Shown: positions 4,923 through 60,879, numbered from the stretch's first letter. The stretch is 64,000 nucleotides of DNA from Parcubacteria group bacterium (GCA_041660065.1 JBAZXC010000001.1:72535-136534), one strand, 5' to 3'. The notes: generated by a model not told the origin, from the sequence alone. Numbers and translations are program-made.

Positions 4923-6410
4923 TCACATTCTTTTTTTGCGCTTCAGGAACAGTGCGATATCATGATCTGTAAGTTGTCCCGATATGCGTAGTGTCCCAAA
5001 ATAGATCACACACAGAATAATGCTGGAAATGATGAAAGTAAAAGTGCCTGCAGGGAGAAATATGGAGAAAAAGATCATTAGGATCGCGGCAATGATCGAC
5101 ATGATCCACAGCATGATCGGCATGTGCACGGCAAAGTGTTTTTTGATATAGATGAGTGATCCAATCATAAGGAAAAGTGAGGTAACAACAACGGAAAATG
5201 ATGCACCGATGAGTTCAAATTGTGGGATCAATATAAAGTTTAGCGTAACATTGAGAATAAGTCCCCACAGTGTGAGCCACATAGGGATCTTGACCAATCC
5301 GGCGCCGTTCAAAACAAAGCTAAGCACATAAAAAACCGTGAGAAATCCGGCACCGATCACATAAAGACTCATGGGGTACACCGCCTCAAGGTAGTCTTTG
5401 CCATAAATGAGGAGAATGGTTTGTCTGCTGTAGAGTGCGAGAAGTGTGACAAGCGGAAAAAGAACAAAAAGCATCAGGCGGAGAGATTTATTGATTAGGC
5501 TGGAGGTCTCTGTTTCTTTACGTTCGGCTGTTGTTTTGGAGATTGCCGGTAAAAGGATGATGGTAAGCGCGTAGAAGAGAAAATACGGGATCCGTCCGGC
5601 GGTGAGTGCGGCATTGTAAATACCGGTCAAGTGGTCGCTGTGAAGGAGTGATTTGACGAAGTAGAGATCAATTGTCGAAATGAGTTCATAGAAAAGCAAA
5701 AAGAGAGTTAATGGCCATGCGTAGTTGAGGATTGTCTTGGCAGAAAATGTTTTTGCTGTGCTCATGGGATGATCTTTGATCGCGGGAAAATAGCGATGTG
5801 TGATGATGATGTCGCAAATGATCGCAACGGAAAAAACAAAAAGTGGCGCGACGATATAACCTGAAATCGCACCCTTCACGCCAAAGAAATATGCGAGACC
5901 GATGATAAAAATCACGCGACTGGTTGCGCGCACAGTCTTGAGTATGGATTGCAGACGAAAGAAATGCAATCCGGTGTAAAAATAAAAATAAAAGGATGCT
6001 GCGGCGAAAGCGGGAATGATGAGGGCGGAGAGTTGAAAAAGCGGTGTGAGTGATGAATCGCCAAGGAGATAGGCAATGACCGGTGCGAGGATAAAAAATA
6101 CAACAGTGACACTTGCCATGAGAAGTGCTTGCATTTTCATGCTTTTGCGTTTGATCGGTCGAATCTGTTCCGGATCGCTTTCGATGATCTCGCTTAAATA
6201 TTTTGACATGGCGGTGGGGATGCCATTGCCAATCAAAATCACGATCATAGTGGTGAGTGTGATCACGAGACTGTAGCGACCATAATCATCCGGCTCAAGG
6301 ATGCGTCCAAGTGCGCTGTGGATGACATAACCGGCAGCGTTAAAAATGATTTCCGATATGGTGAGCCAGACGAGTGAACGGGAAAAATTTTTCATAAAAC
6401 AGAATGTCAA
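4923..6410 (-). CDS. polysaccharide biosynthesis protein / oligosaccharide flippase (MOP superfamily, Wzx-like)
   Basis: 495 aa with ~14 predicted TM segments; N-terminal motif pattern of MOP flippases. Confidence 0.6.
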   Translation of the reverse strand: MTFCFMKNFSRSLVWLTISEIIFNAAGYVIHSALGRILEPDDYGRYSLVITLTTMIVILIGNGIPTAMSKYLSEIIESDPEQIRPIKRKSMKMQALLMASVTVVFFILAPVIAYLLGDSSLTPLFQLSALIIPAFAAASFYFYFYTGLHFFRLQSILKTVRATSRVIFIIGLAYFFGVKGAISGYIVAPLFVFSVAIICDIIITHRYFPAIKDHPMSTAKTFSAKTILNYAWPLTLFLLFYELISTIDLYFVKSLLHSDHLTGIYNAALTAGRIPYFLFYALTIILLPAISKTTAERKETETSSLINKSLRLMLFVLFPLVTLLALYSRQTILLIYGKDYLEAVYPMSLYVIGAGFLTVFYVLSFVLNGAGLVKIPMWLTLWGLILNVTLNFILIPQFELIGASFSVVVTSLFLMIGSLIYIKKHFAVHMPIMLWIMSIIAAILMIFFSIFLPAGTFTFIISSIILCVIYFGTLRISGQLTDHDIALFLKRKKRM

Positions 6411-7007
6411 TCAATTACTTTTGTGTAAAACAGTTTCCAAAATTTGTGTGGCAATGACGGAACGATCGCGATCGCCGTCCAGGGACACAAAATGGAAAAG
6501 ATCATTGTATGTGTTGTATAAATTGTTTTTGTCGATAAGGTATGACACGCCTTGCGCAGGCGCAATATTGCGTTGCATGATCTTGTAGGGATCAACAGCG
6601 AGATAAAATGCATGGTCTGGCATGATCAGCATATTTTGAAAAAATGGGATGTATTTTTTACGGGAAAGATATGCGATGTTGACGATCATATCAAAAAAGT
6701 ATCGGTCGGATAAAATATAGTCATACTTTTGCCGAGAAAGTCGTGTGACCAATAAGCGAAAGCGCATCAGATCGATCACGAGTGCGATCTTGCGCATGCA
6801 GATCGCGATCCATGACGCATGTGAGACATCATACGTCTTACCGTCGGACGATCTTTTTTTACCTGCGTTGAGGATATTGGCAACAGAAAAGGTGATCGCA
6901 TGGAAATAAAAAACCTTATGACCGCGATTCTCAAGTTCTTTTTGCAATAGATCGATTTGGGTGGATTTTCCTGATCCGTCAAGGCCGGAAATTGAGATGA
7001 TTTGCAT
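6411..7007 (-). CDS. thymidylate kinase-like (d)NMP kinase
   Basis: P-loop ISISGLDGSGKSTQ and DRY motif (LSDRYFFD) typical of Tmk; 198 aa. Confidence 0.55.
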   Translation of the reverse strand: MQIISISGLDGSGKSTQIDLLQKELENRGHKVFYFHAITFSVANILNAGKKRSSDGKTYDVSHASWIAICMRKIALVIDLMRFRLLVTRLSRQKYDYILSDRYFFDMIVNIAYLSRKKYIPFFQNMLIMPDHAFYLAVDPYKIMQRNIAPAQGVSYLIDKNNLYNTYNDLFHFVSLDGDRDRSVIATQILETVLHKSN

Positions 7008-11257: not shown

Positions 11258-11276
11258 TAGACCATTTAATTTCTAT

Positions 11277-11346
11277 GTCATCCTGAACTTGTTTCAGGAT
11301 CTCGCAATTATATCTTGTATAGATGCTGAAACAAGTTCAGCATGAC
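11277..11346 (+). terminator. long inverted repeat / terminator-like hairpin
   Basis: 24-nt arms GTCATCCTGAACTTGTTTCAGGAT / ATGCTGAAACAAGTTCAGCATGAC are near-perfect reverse complements, 22 nt apart. Confidence 0.4.
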
Positions 11347-11412
11347 AAAATCCTGTTTCAACTATTTCTTGAGTAAAAAGAAAAAATGACATTTATATTA
11401 CCTAACTATTAA

Positions 11413-16073: not shown

Positions 16074-16175
16074 AGAGACCTCCTTATTATTGAGTGAATG
16101 GATGAGATATAACGTTGTTAAAGAATCACTGTACTGTACTACAAAACTATGGATTTGGTCAAGGTTTTTTTATAT

Positions 16176-16209
16176 ATAAAATAAAAGGAGCAGATTATAA
16201 ATCTGCTCC
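16176..16209 (-). terminator. rho-independent terminator of rtcB (minus strand)
   Basis: GGAGCAG-N9-CTGCTCC hairpin followed on the minus strand by TTTTATTTT. Confidence 0.6.
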
Positions 16210-16228
16210 TGCAAAATTCTCTAGCCGT

Positions 16229-18184: not shown

Positions 18185-18224
18185 AGAGGATGTTTTCCGG
18201 CAGTATCGGAAACATCCTCTTTTA
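18185..18224 (+). terminator. rho-independent terminator
   Basis: ~14-bp stem AGAGGATGTTTTCCG / CGGAAACATCCTCT followed by TTTT. Confidence 0.6.
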
Positions 18225-18225
18225 G

Positions 18226-18345
18226 TTTATAAAGTTGAAAGTCTGTGAAGTCCATAAAGTAGAAAGTCCATAAAGTCAAAAGTCCGTAAAGGTAAAAGTT
18301 TGTAAAGTAGAAAGTCCATAAAGTCCGTAAAGTTATAAAGTTTTT
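18226..18345. repeat. degenerate 16-17-bp tandem repeat array (AAGTCCRTAAAGTNRA-like, ~7 units)
   Basis: Repeated AAAGTCCATAAAGT / AAAGTCCGTAAAG / AAAGTTTGTAAAGT units visible by eye; non-coding. Confidence 0.6.
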
Positions 18346-18410
18346 TCGCAATAGGTAAATAGGTCTTGCTTTACGCGTGGTGAAGTTGTTCGATAGACTG
18401 AAAAATTCTT

Positions 18411-18435
18411 GTCATTCCCGTGAAAACGGGAATCC
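18411..18435. repeat. REP-like palindromic element copy 1 (GTCATTCCCG-N6-CGGGAATCC)
   Basis: GTCATTCCCGTGAAAACGGGAATCC; same family as the copies at 55.9, 56.3 and 59.8 kb. Confidence 0.6.
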
Positions 18436-18448
18436 AAAACCATTCTAT

Positions 18449-19997: not shown

Positions 19998-20056
19998 CTC
20001 GAGTCGTTGCAGGAGCAGGTTTTACAACCTGTTCCTTTTGTTTATGCAAAACAAAT

Positions 20057-20106
20057 AGGAGGAGCGCAGTACAACTGTGCTCCTGCGAATTCGTTTTTAT
20101 TTTTTC
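20057..20106. terminator. bidirectional terminator hairpin (GGAGCNCAG...CTGNGCTCC family)
   Basis: AGGAGGAGCGCAGT-ACAA-CTGTGCTCCT followed by a T-run on the plus strand and a T-rich tract on the minus strand. Confidence 0.5.
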
Positions 20107-22504: not shown

Positions 22505-22621
22505 AAGAGGTCAATTAATTCTTCTCCCATTAGCATAACATAATAGTGTATTATAAAACAGATGCGTTTTGATGAAGAAAAAATCATCGCTTGCGATTTG
22601 TATGTGTATCAGTGGCAACTG

Positions 22622-22695
22622 TTGCAGGATCACAGTTAAGTGGTGCTTTATGTGTAAAAAATGAAAGAAGCAGGTTGTAAACCTGCTCCTGCAAG
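22622..22695. repeat. direct repeat copy A (terminator-containing) flanking the nitrilase-family gene
   Basis: TTGCAGGATCACAG...GTGCTTTATGT...GAAAGAAGCAGGTTGTAAACCTGCTCCTGCAAG; near-identical to 23678..23763. Confidence 0.6.
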
Positions 22696-23645: not shown

Positions 23646-23677
23646 ATGATAGCGATCGTAGTGTGAACGGGAATCTA

Positions 23678-23763
23678 TTGCAGGATCACAGCTATACCGT
23701 GCTTTATGTTTTTGTTATGTGTAGAAAAACGAAAGAAGCAGGTTGTAAACCTGCTCCTGCAAG
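23678..23763. repeat. direct repeat copy B (terminator of the downstream minus-strand GT gene)
   Basis: Same ~85-bp sequence as 22622..22695, with an internal indel. Confidence 0.6.
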
Positions 23764-43316: not shown

Positions 43317-43448
43317 AAAGAAAAAAGCAACAAAGAAAAAAGTTGCAAAGAAAGCAACAAAGAAAAAAGTTGTAAAGAAAGCAACAAAGAAAAAAGCAGT
43401 AAAGAAAGCAACAAAGAAAAAAGCAGCAAAGAAGAAATAGTGTTTTCC
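43317..43448 (+). CDS. Lys/Ala-rich histone H1-like small basic protein (43 aa) built from 24-nt tandem repeats
   Basis: ATG with AAGGAAGGTGA RBS; sequence MAAKKKATKKKVAKKATKKKVVKKATKKKAVKKATKKKAAKKK; followed by a terminator. Not in the ORF track (<60 aa). Confidence 0.5.
43321..43440. repeat. 24-nt tandem repeat (x5) encoding ATKKKxxKK units
   Basis: Repeated GCAACAAAGAAAAAAGTTGCAAAGAAA-like units. Confidence 0.7.
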
Positions 43449-53966: not shown

Positions 53967-54365
53967 ATGTCAGAAGATTATCACAAAAGCATTTATAGTT
54001 ATACGGATTTGGATGTTTATAAGAGAGCATATAAATTGTCTATTATTGTATGTACAAAGTTGATCATCAAGTTGCCAAAAGAAGAGCAATTCGTTCTTGT
54101 GGATCAGTTGCGAAGATCGTTCAAAGCAATACCGCGTTTGATTGCAGAGGGATTTGGTAAAAAACATCAGAAAAAAGGTTTTCAAAAATATTTAGATGAT
54201 GCAATTGCTGAAAATAATGAAACGATTGTGAGCCTTTCACATGTACGAGATATTTACCATAAGTGTGTAAATAAATCATCAATAGAAAAAATGATCAGTG
54301 AATATGAGATTGTGGGCAAACAACTGTTTAGATTAAAACAAAGTTGGAACAAATTTTCTCAATGA
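53967..54365 (+). CDS. four-helix-bundle protein (23S rRNA intervening-sequence protein family)
   Basis: DLDVYKRAYKL ... LPKEEQFVLVDQLRRSFKAIPRLIAEGFGKKH matches the family signature. Confidence 0.7.
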   Translation: MSEDYHKSIYSYTDLDVYKRAYKLSIIVCTKLIIKLPKEEQFVLVDQLRRSFKAIPRLIAEGFGKKHQKKGFQKYLDDAIAENNETIVSLSHVRDIYHKCVNKSSIEKMISEYEIVGKQLFRLKQSWNKFSQ

Positions 54366-54422: not shown

Positions 54423-55898
54423 ATGTCAAAAAAGTATAACGTGACAATCGGTATGGAGATCCATGTGGAGCTCAAGACAGAGTCAAAGATGTTTTCCGGT
54501 GCGCCAAATCATTTGGGTATGGAGAAGACGCCAAACATGTCGATCGATCCCGTGACGATGGCGCTGCCGGGCAGTTTGCCGGTGCCAAACAGGAAGGCGA
54601 TCGAATTTGTCCAAAAAGCGGGACTCGCATTGGACTGTGAGATCGCGCGCAAAAGCAAATTTGATCGCAAAAATTATTTTTATCCCGATCTGCCAAAGGG
54701 GTATCAGATCTCGCAATACGATATGCCTCTGTGTGAGCATGGCAAGGTGATGATCGGCGATAAAGAGGTTGGCATTACGCGTATCCACATGGAAGAGGAC
54801 ACAGGGAAATCCACGCATCCGGCCGGTGCGTCATATTCCCTTGTGGATCTCAATCGTGCGGGTGTGCCTCTTATGGAACTCGTGACCGAGCCGGATATCA
54901 CCAGCGGAGCGCAGGCGAGAATGTTTTGTCAGAAGTTACAGCAGATCTTTCGCTATATCGATATCGCCGATGCGGATATGGAAAAAGGACAGATGCGCTG
55001 TGAGGTGAACATTTCTCTTTATAAAGAAGGTGCCGATCGTCTTAGTGGACAGAAGGTGGAGGTAAAAAATCTCAGTTCATTTCGTGTTGTAGAAAGAGCG
55101 ATCGATTATGAGATCGAACGGCAAGCCAAGGCGTTGGATGGTGGCGAAGTGATCGTGCAAGAGACGCGCGGATGGGATGATGCAAAAGGTAAGACTGTAT
55201 CACAACGCAAAAAAGAAAATGCGCATGATTATCGCTATTTCCCGGAGCCGGATATTCCGCCGATGACATTTACCGACGAGTACGTGGAGCAATTGCGTCG
55301 TACTTTGCCGGAGTTGCCGCGACAAAAGGAAGAGCGTTTTATCAAAGAATACGGTCTGAGTGTGCAAAACTGCTCTGTAATCACGGCGGATATCGCGATG
55401 GCAAATTACTTTGAGCATGTTGTCAGTGAGATCATGGAAAAAAAGGCGTCCGGTGAAATGCGATCCGAACCCGAAAAGGCCATAAAACTTGCCGCAAACT
55501 ATTTGGTCAGCGAAGTGCAAAAACATCTCGTCAAAGAAGGACAGAGCATTGATGATATAAAAATTTCCGCGGAGAATTTTGCCGAACTCATGGCAATCGT
55601 TGCAGATGGCACGATCAATTCGTCGGCGGCACAGATCGTTTTGGAAGAAATGTTTTATGGTAAGGACGATGACCCAAGTCATATTATCGAAGCAAAAAAT
55701 CTCTCACAGGTGTCAGACACGGGTGCATTGGAACAGCATGTCGATGACGTTCTTGCGCAGAATGCACAGTCTGTGGAGGATTACAAAGCCGGCAAAGAAA
55801 ATGCGATCAAGTACCTTATGGGACAAGTAATGAAAGTTTCCGGCGGAAAAGCCAATCCACAAATGGTGATGGAGATCTTGAAAGAAAAGTTGAAATAA
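54423..55898 (+). CDS. gatB: Asp/Glu-tRNA amidotransferase subunit B
   Basis: GatB N-terminal (IGMEIHVEL) and C-terminal GatB/YqeY domain. Confidence 0.9.
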   Translation: MSKKYNVTIGMEIHVELKTESKMFSGAPNHLGMEKTPNMSIDPVTMALPGSLPVPNRKAIEFVQKAGLALDCEIARKSKFDRKNYFYPDLPKGYQISQYDMPLCEHGKVMIGDKEVGITRIHMEEDTGKSTHPAGASYSLVDLNRAGVPLMELVTEPDITSGAQARMFCQKLQQIFRYIDIADADMEKGQMRCEVNISLYKEGADRLSGQKVEVKNLSSFRVVERAIDYEIERQAKALDGGEVIVQETRGWDDAKGKTVSQRKKENAHDYRYFPEPDIPPMTFTDEYVEQLRRTLPELPRQKEERFIKEYGLSVQNCSVITADIAMANYFEHVVSEIMEKKASGEMRSEPEKAIKLAANYLVSEVQKHLVKEGQSIDDIKISAENFAELMAIVADGTINSSAAQIVLEEMFYGKDDDPSHIIEAKNLSQVSDTGALEQHVDDVLAQNAQSVEDYKAGKENAIKYLMGQVMKVSGGKANPQMVMEILKEKLK

Positions 55899-55972
55899 TC
55901 ACTGTTGCGGTGTAATGCTCGTTGTCATTCCCGCGCAGCCTGCCTGCCGGTAGGCAGGGCGGGAATCCAGAT
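55875..55972. repeat. direct repeat left copy (last 8 gatB codons + spacer + nested REP)
   Basis: ~85% identical to 56306..56415, which encodes ILKEKLR* in place of gatB ILKEKLK*. Confidence 0.65.
55921..55972. repeat. REP-like palindromic element copy 2 with nested inner palindrome
   Basis: GTTGTCATTCCCGCGCAG-CCTGCCTGCCGGTAGGCAGG-GCGGGAATCCAGAT. Confidence 0.6.
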
Positions 55973-55978
55973 TTGTCT

Positions 55979-56263
55979 ATGAAAAACTATTTTGTTTATA
56001 TATTGGCAAGCAAAAGAAATGGCACTCTTTATATTGGTATAACGAGCAATTTGCAAAGACGCATATATGAGCATAAAACAAAACAGATTAAAGGATTCAC
56101 AGAAAGATATGGCGTAGATCATCTTGTATATTTTGAGCAGACGACGGATGTGTACAGTGCTCTAACAAGGGAAAAACAATTAAAAAAGTATAACAGACTA
56201 TGGAAATTGCGATTGATTGAAGAACAGAATCCGCAGTGGCAGGATCTTTCAGAAGATTTGTAA
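55979..56263 (+). CDS. GIY-YIG nuclease family protein (UPF0213/YhbQ-like, ~94 aa)
   Basis: YFVYILASKRNGTLYIGITSNLQRRIYEHK = GIY-YIG core with Arg and Glu. Start set at MKNYF; the ORF-track start 55922 lies inside the repeat. Confidence 0.7.
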   Translation: MKNYFVYILASKRNGTLYIGITSNLQRRIYEHKTKQIKGFTERYGVDHLVYFEQTTDVYSALTREKQLKKYNRLWKLRLIEEQNPQWQDLSEDL

Positions 56264-56266
56264 TAT

Positions 56267-56297
56267 TCTAGATTCCCGCCTTCGCGGGAATGACAAC
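56267..56297. repeat. REP-like palindromic element copy 3 (inverted relative to copy 2)
   Basis: TCTAGATTCCCGCCTTCGCGGGAATGACAAC; its reverse complement matches the ends of copy 2 (GTTGTCATTCCCG...CGGGAATCYAGA). Confidence 0.6.
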
Positions 56298-56305
56298 ATA
56301 TAATA

Positions 56306-56415
56306 ATCTTGAAAGAAAAGTTGAGATAATTATGTTGTGATATTGGGAATGGGCATTGTCATTCCTGTGCAACCTGCCTGCCGGTAGGCAGGGTAGGCAG
56401 GGCAGGAATCCAGAT
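56306..56415. repeat. direct repeat right copy (gatB-tail-like fragment + nested REP copy 4)
   Basis: ATCTTGAAAGAAAAGTTGAGATAA ... ATTGTCATTCCTGTGCAACCTGCCTGCCGGTAGGCAGGGTAGGCAGGGCAGGAATCCAGAT. Confidence 0.6.
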
Positions 56416-57971: not shown

Positions 57972-59723
57972 TTATTGTGATTGTAGTTTTGTGATGAAAT
58001 CATCCACGCTGGTTGTTCCTTCGTCATCATTTTCTCGTGAACGGATGGATACGGTTTTATCAGCGACTTCTTTTTCGCCAACGACAAGGATATAAGGCAC
58101 TTTCTCTTTTTGTGCAACGCGCACGCGTTTGCCGAGTGTTTCGGATTGGTCATACAGTTCTACGCGAAAATCGTCTTGCATCAATCGATCACACACCTCT
58201 TTGCCATAGTCATTGAATTTGTCCGATACGGGGATGACAACAATTTGTACAGGAGAGAGCCAGAGGGGAAATGCGCCGGCAAAGTGTTCGATGATCACCG
58301 AGAGAAAGCGTTCCAATGAACCGGCGATTGCGCGGTGGAGCATGACGGGGGTTTGTTTGGCGTTTGTTTCGTCGGTATATTCCAATCCAAATCGCTCCGG
58401 CATCACGAAGTCGAGTTGTGCTGTTGCCAATTGCCACTCGCGTCCGATCGCATCACGGAACATGAAGTCTAATTTCGGTCCGTAAAATGCGGCTTCACCT
58501 TCTACACGTTTGTAAGGGAGGTTTTCTTTTTTAGCGATGTCTTCCAATGTTTTCTCCGCTTTGTCCCATTTGGCGGGGTCGCCGAGATATTTTTCCGGTG
58601 TCTTGGGATTGCGCACGGAAACAGAAACCCAATAATCACCCTCATTGAACATGTTGAGCGATGTGTAGAAATCCTTGATCACTGAGACGATGCCACCGAC
58701 CTCTGTTTCGATCTGAGCGGGTGTGCAAAATACGTGTCCATCGTCCTGAGAGATCGAGCGTACGCGCGAAAGTCCCAAGAGTTCTCCCGCTTGTTCATCG
58801 CGATATACCATAGTCGTTTCCATATAACGCACCGGTAAGTCGCGGTACGAGCGTTGGTGTGATGCATAGATCTGTGTGTGATGGGGGCAGTTCATCGGTT
58901 TCATCACAAACTCTTGATCGGACTGACCTTTGACTTTGAATAATTCATCGCCAAACTTTGCCCAATGTCCTGATTTTTCGTAGAGATCTTTTTTGGTGAT
59001 GTGAGGGATCGTGACTTTTTGATAACCGAATTTTTTCTGGAGGTTTTGGATCTTTTCGACGATCAGATCGCGCAGAAGTGTGCCTTTTGGTGTGAAGAGA
59101 GGAAGTCCGCCACCGACAAGTTCGGAGAATGTAAAGAGATCCAGCTCTTTGCCGAGTTTGCGGTGATCGCGTCGCTTTGCTTCCTCGATGCGCGCAAGGT
59201 AGATATCTAATTCTTCTTTGGTGTCAAAGAGTACACCGTAAATACGCGTAAGCTGTTCGCGCTTCTCGTCGCTTTTCCAGTATGCGCCGGCCAGACGTGT
59301 GATCTTGAGTGCAGATGCGTCGATCTCTTTGCTGTTTTCCACGTGTGGGCCACGGCAGAGGTCGGCAAAATCTTTGGATGTATATACTGAAACGATTGCT
59401 TCACCACTAGTTGCGAGATCGTCAATGAGCTCCAATTTGTATTTTTGATCCTTGAATTGACCTTTTGCTTCGGCGATAGAAATTTCTGATCGCTCAAACG
59501 GGATATTGTGACTGATCATTTTTTTCATGCGCTTCTCGATCTGTTTGAGGTCAGCCTCCGTGATCGGTTGTGCGGTTTCGATATCATAATAAAATCCGTC
59601 ATCGACAATCGGTCCGATACCAAAGAGTGCATCGGGTCGGATCTCTCGCACAGCCATTGCGAGGAGATGGGCGGCGGAATGGCGTTTTTTATTTAGCTCT
59701 TCTGATGGGTTGTGTGAACACAT
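57972..59723 (-). CDS. thrS: threonine--tRNA ligase
   Basis: Class II ThrRS catalytic and anticodon-binding domains (e.g. FMFRDAIGREWQLATAQLDF); lacks a long N-terminal TGS region. Confidence 0.9.
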   Translation of the reverse strand: MCSHNPSEELNKKRHSAAHLLAMAVREIRPDALFGIGPIVDDGFYYDIETAQPITEADLKQIEKRMKKMISHNIPFERSEISIAEAKGQFKDQKYKLELIDDLATSGEAIVSVYTSKDFADLCRGPHVENSKEIDASALKITRLAGAYWKSDEKREQLTRIYGVLFDTKEELDIYLARIEEAKRRDHRKLGKELDLFTFSELVGGGLPLFTPKGTLLRDLIVEKIQNLQKKFGYQKVTIPHITKKDLYEKSGHWAKFGDELFKVKGQSDQEFVMKPMNCPHHTQIYASHQRSYRDLPVRYMETTMVYRDEQAGELLGLSRVRSISQDDGHVFCTPAQIETEVGGIVSVIKDFYTSLNMFNEGDYWVSVSVRNPKTPEKYLGDPAKWDKAEKTLEDIAKKENLPYKRVEGEAAFYGPKLDFMFRDAIGREWQLATAQLDFVMPERFGLEYTDETNAKQTPVMLHRAIAGSLERFLSVIIEHFAGAFPLWLSPVQIVVIPVSDKFNDYGKEVCDRLMQDDFRVELYDQSETLGKRVRVAQKEKVPYILVVGEKEVADKTVSIRSRENDDEGTTSVDDFITKLQSQ

Positions 59724-59800
59724 ATGTTTTTTAATTAGTCCTGTCGCTCACGAGCGACGGGATGATTGGTTAATAATTAATAATGAATTTATTGATTTAA

Positions 59801-59828
59801 TGTCATTCCCGTGCAGACGGGAATCTAG
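59801..59828. repeat. REP-like palindromic element copy 5
   Basis: TGTCATTCCCGTGCAGACGGGAATCTAG. Confidence 0.6.
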
Positions 59829-59846
59829 TCAATAAAATATGTTGTG

Positions 59847-59876
59847 CTGGATTCCCGCCTATGCGGGAATGACAGC
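59847..59876. repeat. REP-like palindromic element copy 6 (inverted; 18 bp from copy 5)
   Basis: CTGGATTCCCGCCTATGCGGGAATGACAGC. Confidence 0.6.
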
Positions 59877-59954
59877 TATGAGATATTTTTGCAGTGCTGC
59901 CTTGATCTTGCCGAGAGGTATTCGTTTTTGTTGAGGAGAGATCCACCCGAGGCG

Positions 59955-59974
59955 CCTGCCTGCCGGTAGGCAGG
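59955..59974. repeat. stand-alone copy of inner palindrome CCTGCCTGCCGGTAGGCAGG
   Basis: Identical 20-mer to the inserts in REP copies 2 and 4. Confidence 0.5.
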
Positions 59975-60218
59975 GATTAATTTTTCTTTTAGAAAAATTA
60001 AAAAGCGTCAACAACAAATACTGCAAACTTTGTACTGAGACCCTTCTTTGGAGAGGGGCGGTTCCACTCAGTTTCCCGTTTTTGTTGTGGGCGCTCTTTG
60101 GATCGTGCATCTCACGTGTACACGTCATTACGCAGACTCCATAGTTTGGTAGGCTATATCATCATCTGTATGAAATTGTACTTGTATTGTGGCATGAAAA
60201 ATGGCAGGATGTCAAGCA

Positions 60219-60247
60219 TTGACAAAATACAAATCGTATGCTATAAT
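60219..60247 (+). promoter_or_regulatory. consensus sigma70-type promoter (TTGACA-17-TATAAT)
   Basis: TTGACA at 60219-60224, 17-nt spacer, TATAAT at 60242-60247; AAAGGAGA RBS before the ATG at 60319. Confidence 0.6.
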
Positions 60248-60318
60248 GTACGGTTGTTATTTTTTGTTCGTTTTATCATCAAAAAAGCGCATATTGCGCA
60301 CAAAAAAGGAGAAATGGT

Positions 60319-60879
60319 ATGAATACTGTTGCGAGAAGTTTGTCAGATTTGGGTTTGGCCATTGCTTCATATGATCCGTCTCACAGGGCACCAAAAGTCC
60401 GGCGACCGAAAAAAGAGAAAAAGAGGATCGTCGTCATGCAGAAAGTCAGTGAAACGAAAGGCGGGTCACAGACTACCGATGAAAAAGTCGTAAAACCTGT
60501 AGCTCCTCGGTACACATCCATCACGACAGAAACCGGCGTAAAAATCCGGGTGCCAAAAAAGAATGGTCTGGAGTATAAGGAAGAGTATTTCTTAAGCGGA
60601 AGGTGCATTGAAGCGCACTATCATCATGTGTGTGGACTCGACAAGAAAGGCGTTCTCAATAGATTCTTTTATGGGATCAAAGAAGAGCATTTTGGTAAAA
60701 ATATTATTACCACAGTTGTCGTTGTGGAAAAAACAATGCCGGACGGTCATGTGTTCACGATGACTAATATCTACAACACGCCGGAGGCTGTGAAAAAAAG
60801 TACGTTCACCATGCCAATCGGAGGTGACAAGGGCATAAAGATCATCCAGTCACAGTCGCAACACATCGTATTTGCGTAA
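60319..60879 (+). CDS. hypothetical protein (basic disordered N-terminus + ~120-aa C-terminal domain)
   Basis: Good promoter, RBS and terminator; no recognisable family. Confidence 0.45.
   Translation: MNTVARSLSDLGLAIASYDPSHRAPKVRRPKKEKKRIVVMQKVSETKGGSQTTDEKVVKPVAPRYTSITTETGVKIRVPKKNGLEYKEEYFLSGRCIEAHYHHVCGLDKKGVLNRFFYGIKEEHFGKNIITTVVVVEKTMPDGHVFTMTNIYNTPEAVKKSTFTMPIGGDKGIKIIQSQSQHIVFA

Follow-up and report, generated by a model that had tools for sequence, protein, structure and literature searches.

A 64,000-nt stretch of DNA from a Parcubacteria group bacterium (GCA_041660065.1 JBAZXC010000001.1:72535-136534; hereafter the window) carries clustered palindromic hairpins, some of them nested one inside another, and raises the question of what these repeats are and which gene they accompany. 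A first-pass annotation had treated an outer hairpin and a 20-nt inner palindrome as one family of REP-like elements (repetitive extragenic palindromes) with inverted doublets resembling BIMEs (bacterial interspersed mosaic elements). As a general reading of the hairpins and their inverted doublets this was right, but the two palindromes belong to different systems. We concluded that the outer repeats, together with a small GIY-YIG gene, very probably represent an Ssn/SRM system, that is, a GIY-YIG nuclease specific for single-stranded DNA (ssDNA) with its cognate hairpins, here in a member of the Parcubacteria (Candidate Phyla Radiation, CPR). The inner palindrome, first taken for a variant of the outer family, is instead a distinct module that has a cross-phylum distribution and an associated GIY-YIG subfamily of its own. 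Throughout, the outer hairpin repeat is called SRM or NTS, the small GIY-YIG gene ssn, and the window's 20-nt inner palindrome PT.

About half of the neisserial dRS3 copies are a 28-nt oriented hairpin, NTS, with the sequence CGTCATTCCCGCGMAVGCGGGAATCYRG (Chenal et al., Nat Commun 2025, PMC11893778), and NTS-like 'Ssn-related motifs' (SRM) flank homologues of the 94-aa single-domain GIY-YIG protein SsnA (cd10448) across phyla (PMC11893778). The likeness of the window repeats to dRS3, which the first-pass annotation had taken for a coincidence, is explained by this relationship, dRS3 being the core of the NTS/SRM motif that travels with ssn (PMC11893778). The window copies agree with the 28-nt NTS consensus except at the first base, which is T instead of C; solely for this reason the strict NTS pattern had no match in the window, while the published degenerate SRM pattern had four, three of them canonical copies, against 0.12 expected. 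Exact matches to ATTCCCG-N6-CGGGAAT likewise numbered four (18414, 56272, 59805, and 59851) against 0.01 expected by chance, and two further outer copies, at 55923-55970 and 56357-56413, hold the inner palindrome in their loop, as had been reported for 55921 and 56355. The outer palindrome is thus present at six sites in the window and not at seven as originally counted, the site at 59955 being the inner palindrome alone. With a variant pair at 11276-11347, which had been overlooked, the window contains eight SRM copies in 64 kb, a strong local enrichment, and all of its SRM and PT copies are intergenic.

The non-palindromic flanks of the SRM, 5' TGTCAT and 3' C-YAG, confer an orientation on each copy, and the simple copies fold as 8-bp ssDNA hairpins with z-scores of -4 to -7 against shuffled controls. 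Differences between stems within the window are compensatory, comprising C-G to T-A, C-G to G-C, and, in a degenerate copy, CG to TA. The stem types ATTCCCGC/GCGGGAAT and ATTCCCGT/ACGGGAAT differ by such a change, and related loci add the types ATTCCCAT/ATGGGAAT, ATCCCCGT/ACGGGGAT, and ATGCCCGT/ACGGGCAT, each with its complement.

The gene itself lies between two inverted SRM copies. The first-pass annotation did not list it, although it had suggested looking for a GIY-YIG gene next to the repeats, and such a gene is indeed found between the copies at 55923 and 56268. This ssn homologue (55979-56263, plus strand; identified from the list of open reading frames, ORFs, and Pfam) encodes a single-domain GIY-YIG nuclease of 94 aa, the length of N. 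meningitidis SsnA. Residues 3-74 are covered by PF01541 (GIY-YIG; 2.7e-16), the only other Pfam match is a weak, overlapping one to T5orf172, and there is no second domain; by tblastn it is the single GIY-YIG gene of the ssn type in the window. A Parcubacteria group metagenome-assembled genome (MAG) encodes the same protein at 100% identity, annotated as 'GIY-YIG nuclease family protein', and more than 7,900 homologues are found in the CPR and many other phyla. Y7, Y18, R28, H32, and E65 were invariant in 21 homologues, and the one-residue offset of Y7, Y18, and E65 suggests that they correspond to Y6, Y17, and E64, which are essential in N. meningitidis SsnA (PMC11893778). The nearest solved structure was UPF0213 BH0048, a weak match (E 0.002) in a PDB search, and PADLOC, PHROGs, and NCBIfam returned only weak generic GIY-YIG or homing-endonuclease matches.

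The cassette reads SRM, 8 nt, ORF, 4 nt, SRM. Its left inverted repeat (55923-55970, plus strand; TGTCATTCCCGCGCAG...GCGGGAATCCAG, defined by sequence, hairpin scan, and fold) has PT inside the loop and ends 8 nt before the ATG of ssn, and its right inverted repeat (56268-56295, minus strand; TGTCATTCCCGCGAAGGCGGGAATCTAG on that strand, identified by exact match, hairpin scan, and the published SRM pattern) begins 4 nt past the stop codon and folds at -8.9 kcal/mol (z -3.9). In all five independent close homologues examined (72-86% identity), ssn is bracketed in the same way, with SRM(+) just upstream and SRM(-) just downstream; in the compact cassettes (the window and loci L204, L205, and L207), 8 nt separate the upstream SRM from the ATG and 4-6 nt separate the stop codon from the downstream SRM. 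These homologous cassettes stand in unrelated gene contexts (behind an NYN gene, within a cluster of glycosyltransferase genes, behind an RNase HII gene, or ahead of thrS), and the neighbouring genes in the window (gatB, miaA, thrS, and dnaE in the ORF list) are ordinary housekeeping genes.

Four purified Ssn homologues bind the hairpin only as ssDNA and on one strand, cut a few nucleotides 5' of it, cut neither double-stranded DNA nor RNA, and do not bind RNA (PMC11893778). By analogy with these proteins, each SRM of the window would fold into an 8-bp hairpin whenever the DNA becomes single-stranded during replication, repair, or DNA uptake, and the window Ssn would bind the folded repeat on a single strand, cleaving a few nucleotides to its 5' side. 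The cassette behaves like a mobile module, selfish or domesticated, that genomes acquire and lose and that decays, and the inner 20-nt palindrome is a second, independent hairpin module, cleanly inserted into the SRM loop at its 3' end. The neisserial Ssn restricts ssDNA entering the cell during transformation.

A small nuclease gene between inverted hairpin repeats, doublets without an ORF, and recognition of an ssDNA hairpin are features shared with the REP/BIME elements and their REP-associated tyrosine transposases (RAYT) and with IS200/IS605, and the NTS-ssnA-NTS layout has itself been noted as insertion-sequence-like (PMC11893778). In being clustered, inverted, and intergenic, the hairpins are like REP doublets and BIMEs; GTAG is present in the inner palindrome; and among the matches listed for that palindrome a RAYT-like ORF lies within 200 nt in 2 of 120 loci. 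It is nevertheless hardly credible that the repeats are mobilised by an IS200-like Y1 transposase of the RAYT type: the gene between them encodes a GIY-YIG protein and not one of the HUH/Y1 fold, and the SRM 5' flank is TGTCAT, without the GTAG of REPs. The RAYT gene that the first-pass annotation had proposed to look for beside the copies had no match in the window (tblastn, one query), and at the two loci with a RAYT, L018 (3560-4180) and L075 (1-860), both from Chitinophagaceae, the IS200-like/RAYT ORF is flanked by repeats of another kind (GGCGTAGCCACGGTGC... and ACTACGGACTTCAGTCCGTAGT), the 20-mer merely lying within 200 nt of it.

Two inverted SRM pairs in the window have no gene between them. 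The head-to-head, cargo-less pair with an 18-nt spacer upstream of thrS, already recognised by the first-pass annotation, was recovered with arms at 59801-59828 (plus strand; SRM pattern, fold -7.6 kcal/mol, z -5.0) and 59847-59874 (minus strand; SRM pattern, fold -12.6 kcal/mol, z -6.9). The variant pair at 11276-11347 (inverted-repeat search and hairpin scan), located between a MazG-like ORF and a NUDIX ORF, has the same 18-nt spacing, its arms being 11276-11302 and 11321-11347 and its spacer 11303-11320 according to a hairpin scan anchored on GTCAT. These arms read TGTCAT-CCTGAAC-TTGT-TTCAGG-ATCT and TGTCAT-GCTGAAC-TTGT-TTCAGC-ATCT, with 8-bp stems, ATCCTGAA in one arm and ATGCTGAA in the other, that differ by a compensatory C-G to G-C change and fold at -6.1 and -6.7 kcal/mol (z -4.0 and -4.6).

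Locus L207 (GCA_026990515.1) carries a full SRM-ssn-SRM cassette directly upstream of thrS-miaA, exactly where the window has the ORF-less pair, and the proteins of the two loci are 75% (ThrRS) and 59% (MiaA) identical. The comparison was made by direct reading of both loci and by protein synteny; a MAFFT global alignment misplaced the left part (ssn gap). Read against L207, the spacer of the window pair (59829-59846) stands where that locus has 8 nt, the ssn ORF, and 4 nt. The start of the spacer resembles the 8-nt leader plus the 'AT' of the start codon, its end resembles the ssn 3' end, and it also resembles the spacer of the variant pair; an inverted repeat with 76% complementarity reaches into the 3' end of ssn. 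Because the spacer resembles both the ssn ends and the spacer of the other pair, the ORF-less pairs, and that at 59801-59874 in particular, are most likely ssn cassettes from which the ORF has been deleted.

Pairs of about 74 bp also look like elements reduced to terminal inverted repeats, as in classical miniature inverted-repeat transposable elements derived from DDE transposons, or they could be integrase attachment sites of the kind that dRS3 provides for neisserial filamentous phages, dRS3 being a known phage integration target (PMC11893778). We regard either origin as very improbable. No target-site duplication was found flanking 59801-59874 or 11276-11347, the sole product of the full-length partner is a GIY-YIG protein of 94 aa, neither a transposase nor an integrase being encoded between the repeats, and no prophage-like content was seen beside the copies, the whole window not having been annotated for prophage. 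Neisserial dRS3/NIME (Neisseria intergenic mosaic element) arrays share with the window an identical ATTCCC-N8-GGGAAT core and the clustering of copies in intergenic DNA. In contrast, dRS3 as first defined disregards the oriented flanks and is tied to filamentous-phage integration, whereas the window SRMs have no such link and no 50-150-bp RS units between copies.

The pair upstream of thrS also bears on a third explanation, in which the repeats act at the RNA level as terminators, stabilisers of mRNA 3' ends, or small RNAs (sRNA) transcribed from inverted pairs. Positions 59791-59887 match the Rfam families WsnRNA46 (Wolbachia sRNA 46) and FtrB (Francisella sRNA B), which have the same inverted-hairpin architecture, TGTCAT-hairpin-ATCCAG ... 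CTGGAT-hairpin-ATGACA, but these matches are far under the gathering scores (29.6 against 65.3 bits for WsnRNA46; 27.3 against 66 for FtrB), and at gathering thresholds Rfam gave no match in the whole window. The copies are intergenic, some of them follow stop codons, and the solo PT at 59955 has a T-rich tail. Intrinsic terminators were rejected for the SRMs, none of which has a T-run after its hairpin or a terminator-like score; among these repeats the solo PT alone was scored as terminator-like. The copies occur in both orientations relative to neighbouring genes and also stand upstream of genes (thrS and ssn), and an RNA-level role leaves both the conserved non-palindromic flanks and the close association with a nuclease gene unexplained; RNA binding, moreover, is absent from the characterised Ssn homologues. 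A function of this kind appears improbable as the main explanation of the repeats, and an Ssn/SRM system is preferred.

A direct duplication of about 100 bp, also absent from the first-pass annotation, flanks ssn with 83% mean column identity between its copies. Copy 1 (55875-55972, plus strand; alignment) comprises the last 24 nt of gatB (ILKEKLK*; gatB is ORF 54423-55898), a spacer, and the SRM with PT, and the orphan copy 2 (56306-56415, plus strand; alignment and fold) comprises a remnant of the gatB end (ILKEKLR*), a spacer, and a degenerate SRM. This last hairpin, at 56357-56413, has the stem ATTCCTG/CAGGAAT, itself a compensatory change, with PT at 56373-56392 and an additional 9-nt arm repeat, GTAGGCAGG, at 56393-56401. 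In the unrelated genome of locus L003, a 174-nt direct duplication with 99% identity (5711-5884 / 6327-6500) flanks ssn in the same manner. We infer that these duplications fit a circular or tandem intermediate integrating by recombination within the repeated segment, and not cut-and-paste transposition. Around ssn, positions 5600-6710 of L003 hold a BIME-like array of at least four SRM variants, one of them a 40-nt form with an enlarged loop.

Several considerations weigh against assigning the repeats and their gene to a mobile Ssn/SRM system. The status of a 'dispersed family' is extrapolated from eight SRM copies in 64 kb, and the class of the window protein is suggested by its Pfam domain, length, residues, and repeat context, its presumed cleavage of ssDNA being carried over from homologues. 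The covariation in the stems fits a DNA hairpin and an RNA hairpin alike, and the sub-threshold WsnRNA46 and FtrB matches of the pair at 59791-59887 leave room for a role at the RNA level. At the thrS site, the direction of change, loss here as opposed to gain in L207, is suggested solely by the weak similarity between the spacer and the ssn ends, and to our knowledge the transposition mechanism is known for no Ssn cassette.

Set beside the NTS/SRM-SsnA systems of N. meningitidis, N. elongata, N. wadsworthii, and Wolbachia, the window shows a 28-nt oriented hairpin of almost the same sequence (TGTCATTCCCGC-loop-GCGGGAATCYAG), inverted copies of it on both sides of a single-domain GIY-YIG gene encoding 94 aa, and further copies scattered through intergenic DNA. 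The outer family and its gene are a member of a known system, published in 2025, in a new host. Unlike the systems described by Chenal et al., the window comes from a Parcubacteria (CPR) MAG, and Patescibacteria are unmentioned in the text of that paper (PMC11893778). Further differences are natural composite hairpins whose loop holds a second palindrome, of 20 nt; inverted pairs that lack an ORF and are spaced by 18 nt; the duplication of about 100 bp flanking the gene; and a second coexisting SRM variant (the ATCCTGAA stem). The window system is known from sequence alone. None of the nested composite, the ORF-less pairs, or the duplications appears in the published account (PMC11893778), and all three are relevant to Ssn mobility.

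The inner palindrome, CCTGCCTGCCGGTAGGCAGG, occurs in the window as three identical copies, at 55939, 56373, and 59955, where none is expected. In the left repeat of the cassette, PT (55939-55958) lies between the GCAG loop and the 3' stem arm, and the composite 55918-55975 folds as ssDNA into a nested, two-storey hairpin (-16.3 kcal/mol, z -3.9). In the window SRMs, the 20 nt of PT are inserted cleanly where the 4-nt loop meets the 3' stem arm (GCAG/PT/GCGGG); PT has this position and orientation in locus L060 (GAAA/PT/GCGGG) too and, with one substitution, in the downstream SRM of the 86%-identical L204 cassette. Loop identity is dispensable for Ssn, and engineered loop extensions are tolerated in vitro (PMC11893778). 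The third copy (59955-59974, plus strand; fold -8.0 kcal/mol, z -1.3 in context) stands alone in the long thrS leader region, as had been noted before, and its flanks do not form an SRM stem. The upstream SRM of the L207 cassette (1820-1874) contains a different loop insert, ccctgtaccgtctggtacttt, which is a small hairpin in its own right and has a direct repeat, GCGGAG, on either side; because of this second kind of insert, SRM loops seem to serve generally as sites where small hairpins land.

PT is the T13 variant of a perfect-palindrome form, P0 (CCTGCCTGCCGGCAGGCAGG), with which it has 19 of 20 bases in common. A scan for the exact 20-mer through one genome per species (596 Gb, both strands; about one chance match calculated) found it in at least 120 genome stretches, with hosts among the matches listed in Bacteroidota, Patescibacteria, Ignavibacteria, Omnitrophota, Chloroflexota, Planctomycetota, Nitrospirota, and deltaproteobacteria. 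Among these listed matches, the flanks were unrelated between loci, although a G precedes the 20-mer in 68% and follows it in 56%. The 20-mer directly adjoins a perfect stem of at least 6 bp, and so lies in the loop of another hairpin, in 11 of 124 cases, compared with 0.8 in permuted controls, and in 10 cases it lies between direct repeats of at least 6 nt, compared with 0.7; the hairpins that host it in this set include SRMs, a terminator, and the palindrome's own hairpin. Some copies are nested in themselves, and some have duplicated arms, as at 56393-56401.

Clustering of the ORFs near the 20-mer, again among the matches listed, revealed one recurrent family, a second small GIY-YIG subfamily, here called GIY-YIG-2, of about 80 aa with a C-terminal REKYLKSGxGKEFLK and 36% identity to the window Ssn. 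In this set its gene lies 14-120 nt from the palindrome in seven loci, and a tRNA gene stands directly downstream of it in five of the six loci checked. From the protein side, we examined 80 metagenome loci encoding GIY-YIG-2 (L124-L203), from a search based on three close sequences. Counted from the per-locus table, a palindrome lies 25-80 nt upstream of the gene in about 65 of the 80 loci, mostly as perfect P0 (58 exact copies vs 7 of the T13 variant), and a tRNA gene on the same strand starts less than about 100 nt downstream in about 65 of the 80, several others being end-truncated. The tRNA species concerned include Arg, Asn, Leu, Thr, Lys, Phe, Met, His, and Gly.

Of the 52 loci having both a palindrome and a tRNA, 42 agree with the downstream tRNA over the 14 nt on the left of the palindrome and 36 over the 14 nt on its right, and in all 32 loci with agreement on both sides the two segments are directly adjacent in the tRNA; the palindrome is therefore an exact 20-nt insertion in a tRNA half. 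The insertion point mostly falls at tRNA positions 20-24, where the D-loop ends on its 3' side. The unit thus consists of the 5' half of a tRNA, reaching as far as the anticodon loop and holding P0 in its D-loop, followed by the GIY-YIG ORF and an intact tRNA. Such units stand next to many tRNA species in many phyla (for example L160 2430-2880, L115 6990-7720 on the minus strand, and L146 680-1050), tandem units occur in L115, and in L160 the ORF has collapsed to a few codons, ATG AAT TAT TTA TAA. The GIY-YIG-2 family comprises at least 780 clusters at 90% identity, including cultured Pedobacter and Cyclobacterium, all annotated just as 'GIY-YIG nuclease family protein'.

The P0 units resemble free-standing GIY-YIG homing endonucleases and tRNA-restoring integrative elements in placing a small GIY-YIG ORF at a conserved gene, part of which is duplicated while the tRNA is left intact, and their tandem and ORF-decayed copies recall the life cycle of homing endonucleases. 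The P0 units differ from both kinds of element in that GIY-YIG-2, at about 80 aa and known from its sequence only, has no DNA-binding domain, in that there is no intron, and in that the orphan tRNA half holds a fixed, perfect palindrome of 20 nt in its D-loop. The window itself contains no tRNA and, by tblastn, no GIY-YIG-2 gene, so that its PT copies do not form such units; they are T13 variants, in SRM loops or alone, that share with the P0 family the rule of insertion at the 3' end of a loop.

These observations suggest that the 20-mer may be the cognate site of GIY-YIG-2 and may itself be mobile. A joint reading, which we offer tentatively and hold to be possible but somewhat short of probable, is that P0 is a 20-nt module landing at the 3' end of hairpin loops (those of tRNA D-loops, SRMs, a terminator, and its own) and the predicted cognate site of GIY-YIG-2. 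The units would then be a homing-like mobile element that targets and restores tRNA genes across Bacteroidota, Patescibacteria, and other phyla, and the SRM-PT composites of the window would mark the intersection of two systems. The Ssn paper makes no mention of tRNA (PMC11893778), and a search of open-access text for the 20-mer, or for GIY-YIG genes with tRNA and a palindrome, found nothing relevant. The GIY-YIG-2/tRNA unit, for which no description was found in the open-access literature, is the part worth following up.

Some further features of the window lie near these elements. The solo SRM hairpin, TGTCATTCCCGTGAAAACGGGAATCCAA (18410-18437, plus strand; fold -8.3 kcal/mol, z -4.2), lies between convergent genes and adjoins a 16-nt tandem repeat array. 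The array itself, at 18223-18325, also between convergent genes and about 85 nt upstream of the hairpin, has at least five tandem copies of a AAGTCCATAAAGTAGA-like unit and looks like iterons or a binding array. A possible SRM remnant at 23665, as the first-pass annotation also suggested, has about 12 nt in common with the SRM 3' half and lies inside another repeat (22614-22653 / 23670-23709). A separate hairpin family, GGAGCAG-N9-CTGCTCC followed by TGCAA, has four copies (16167-16214, 20041-20088, 22647-22694, and 23715-23762), which are probably terminators; a longer repeat common to the copies at 22614-22694 and 23670-23762 includes the 23665 remnant.

In the long leader upstream of thrS, the window (60040-60100, minus strand) and L207 (1670-1790) share a conserved segment, GCGCCCACA...CTGAGTGGAACCGCCCC...GGGTCTCAG, and upstream of it there is a strong promoter-like site at 60215-60186 (minus strand); a consensus TTGACA-17-TATAAT site at 60219-60247 faces the opposite way. 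A T-box leader, suspected from the GAGTGGAACCGCC motif conserved with L207, was rejected, as no Rfam T-box was found in 59650-60330 at E up to 1. Immediately upstream of gatB, 53967-54365 (plus strand) encodes a 132-aa '23S rRNA-intervening sequence protein', a four-helix bundle (PF05635, 6.6e-19), and TGTCAT and ATGAC fragments lie near the ends of this ORF, without clear hairpins there. ORFs of this kind often occur as isolated inserts. At 43321-43443, 27-nt tandem repeats resembling AAAGCAACAAAGAAAAAAGTTGCAAAG would, if coding, specify a lysine-rich repeat.

The findings extend the Ssn/SRM ssDNA-nuclease system to the Candidate Phyla Radiation, whose members are thought to depend on DNA uptake. 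The filled and empty states at an orthologous site, the ORF-collapsed pairs, and the duplications in two unrelated genomes bear on the insertion-sequence-like hypothesis of the Ssn authors. The natural SRM hairpins with a second palindrome parallel the engineered loop extensions tolerated in vitro and are ready substrates for specificity tests. If the GIY-YIG-2/tRNA units are mobile or homing, they would constitute a new and very compact class of element, and GIY-YIG-2, present in culturable Bacteroidota, would be another source of sequence-specific nucleases.

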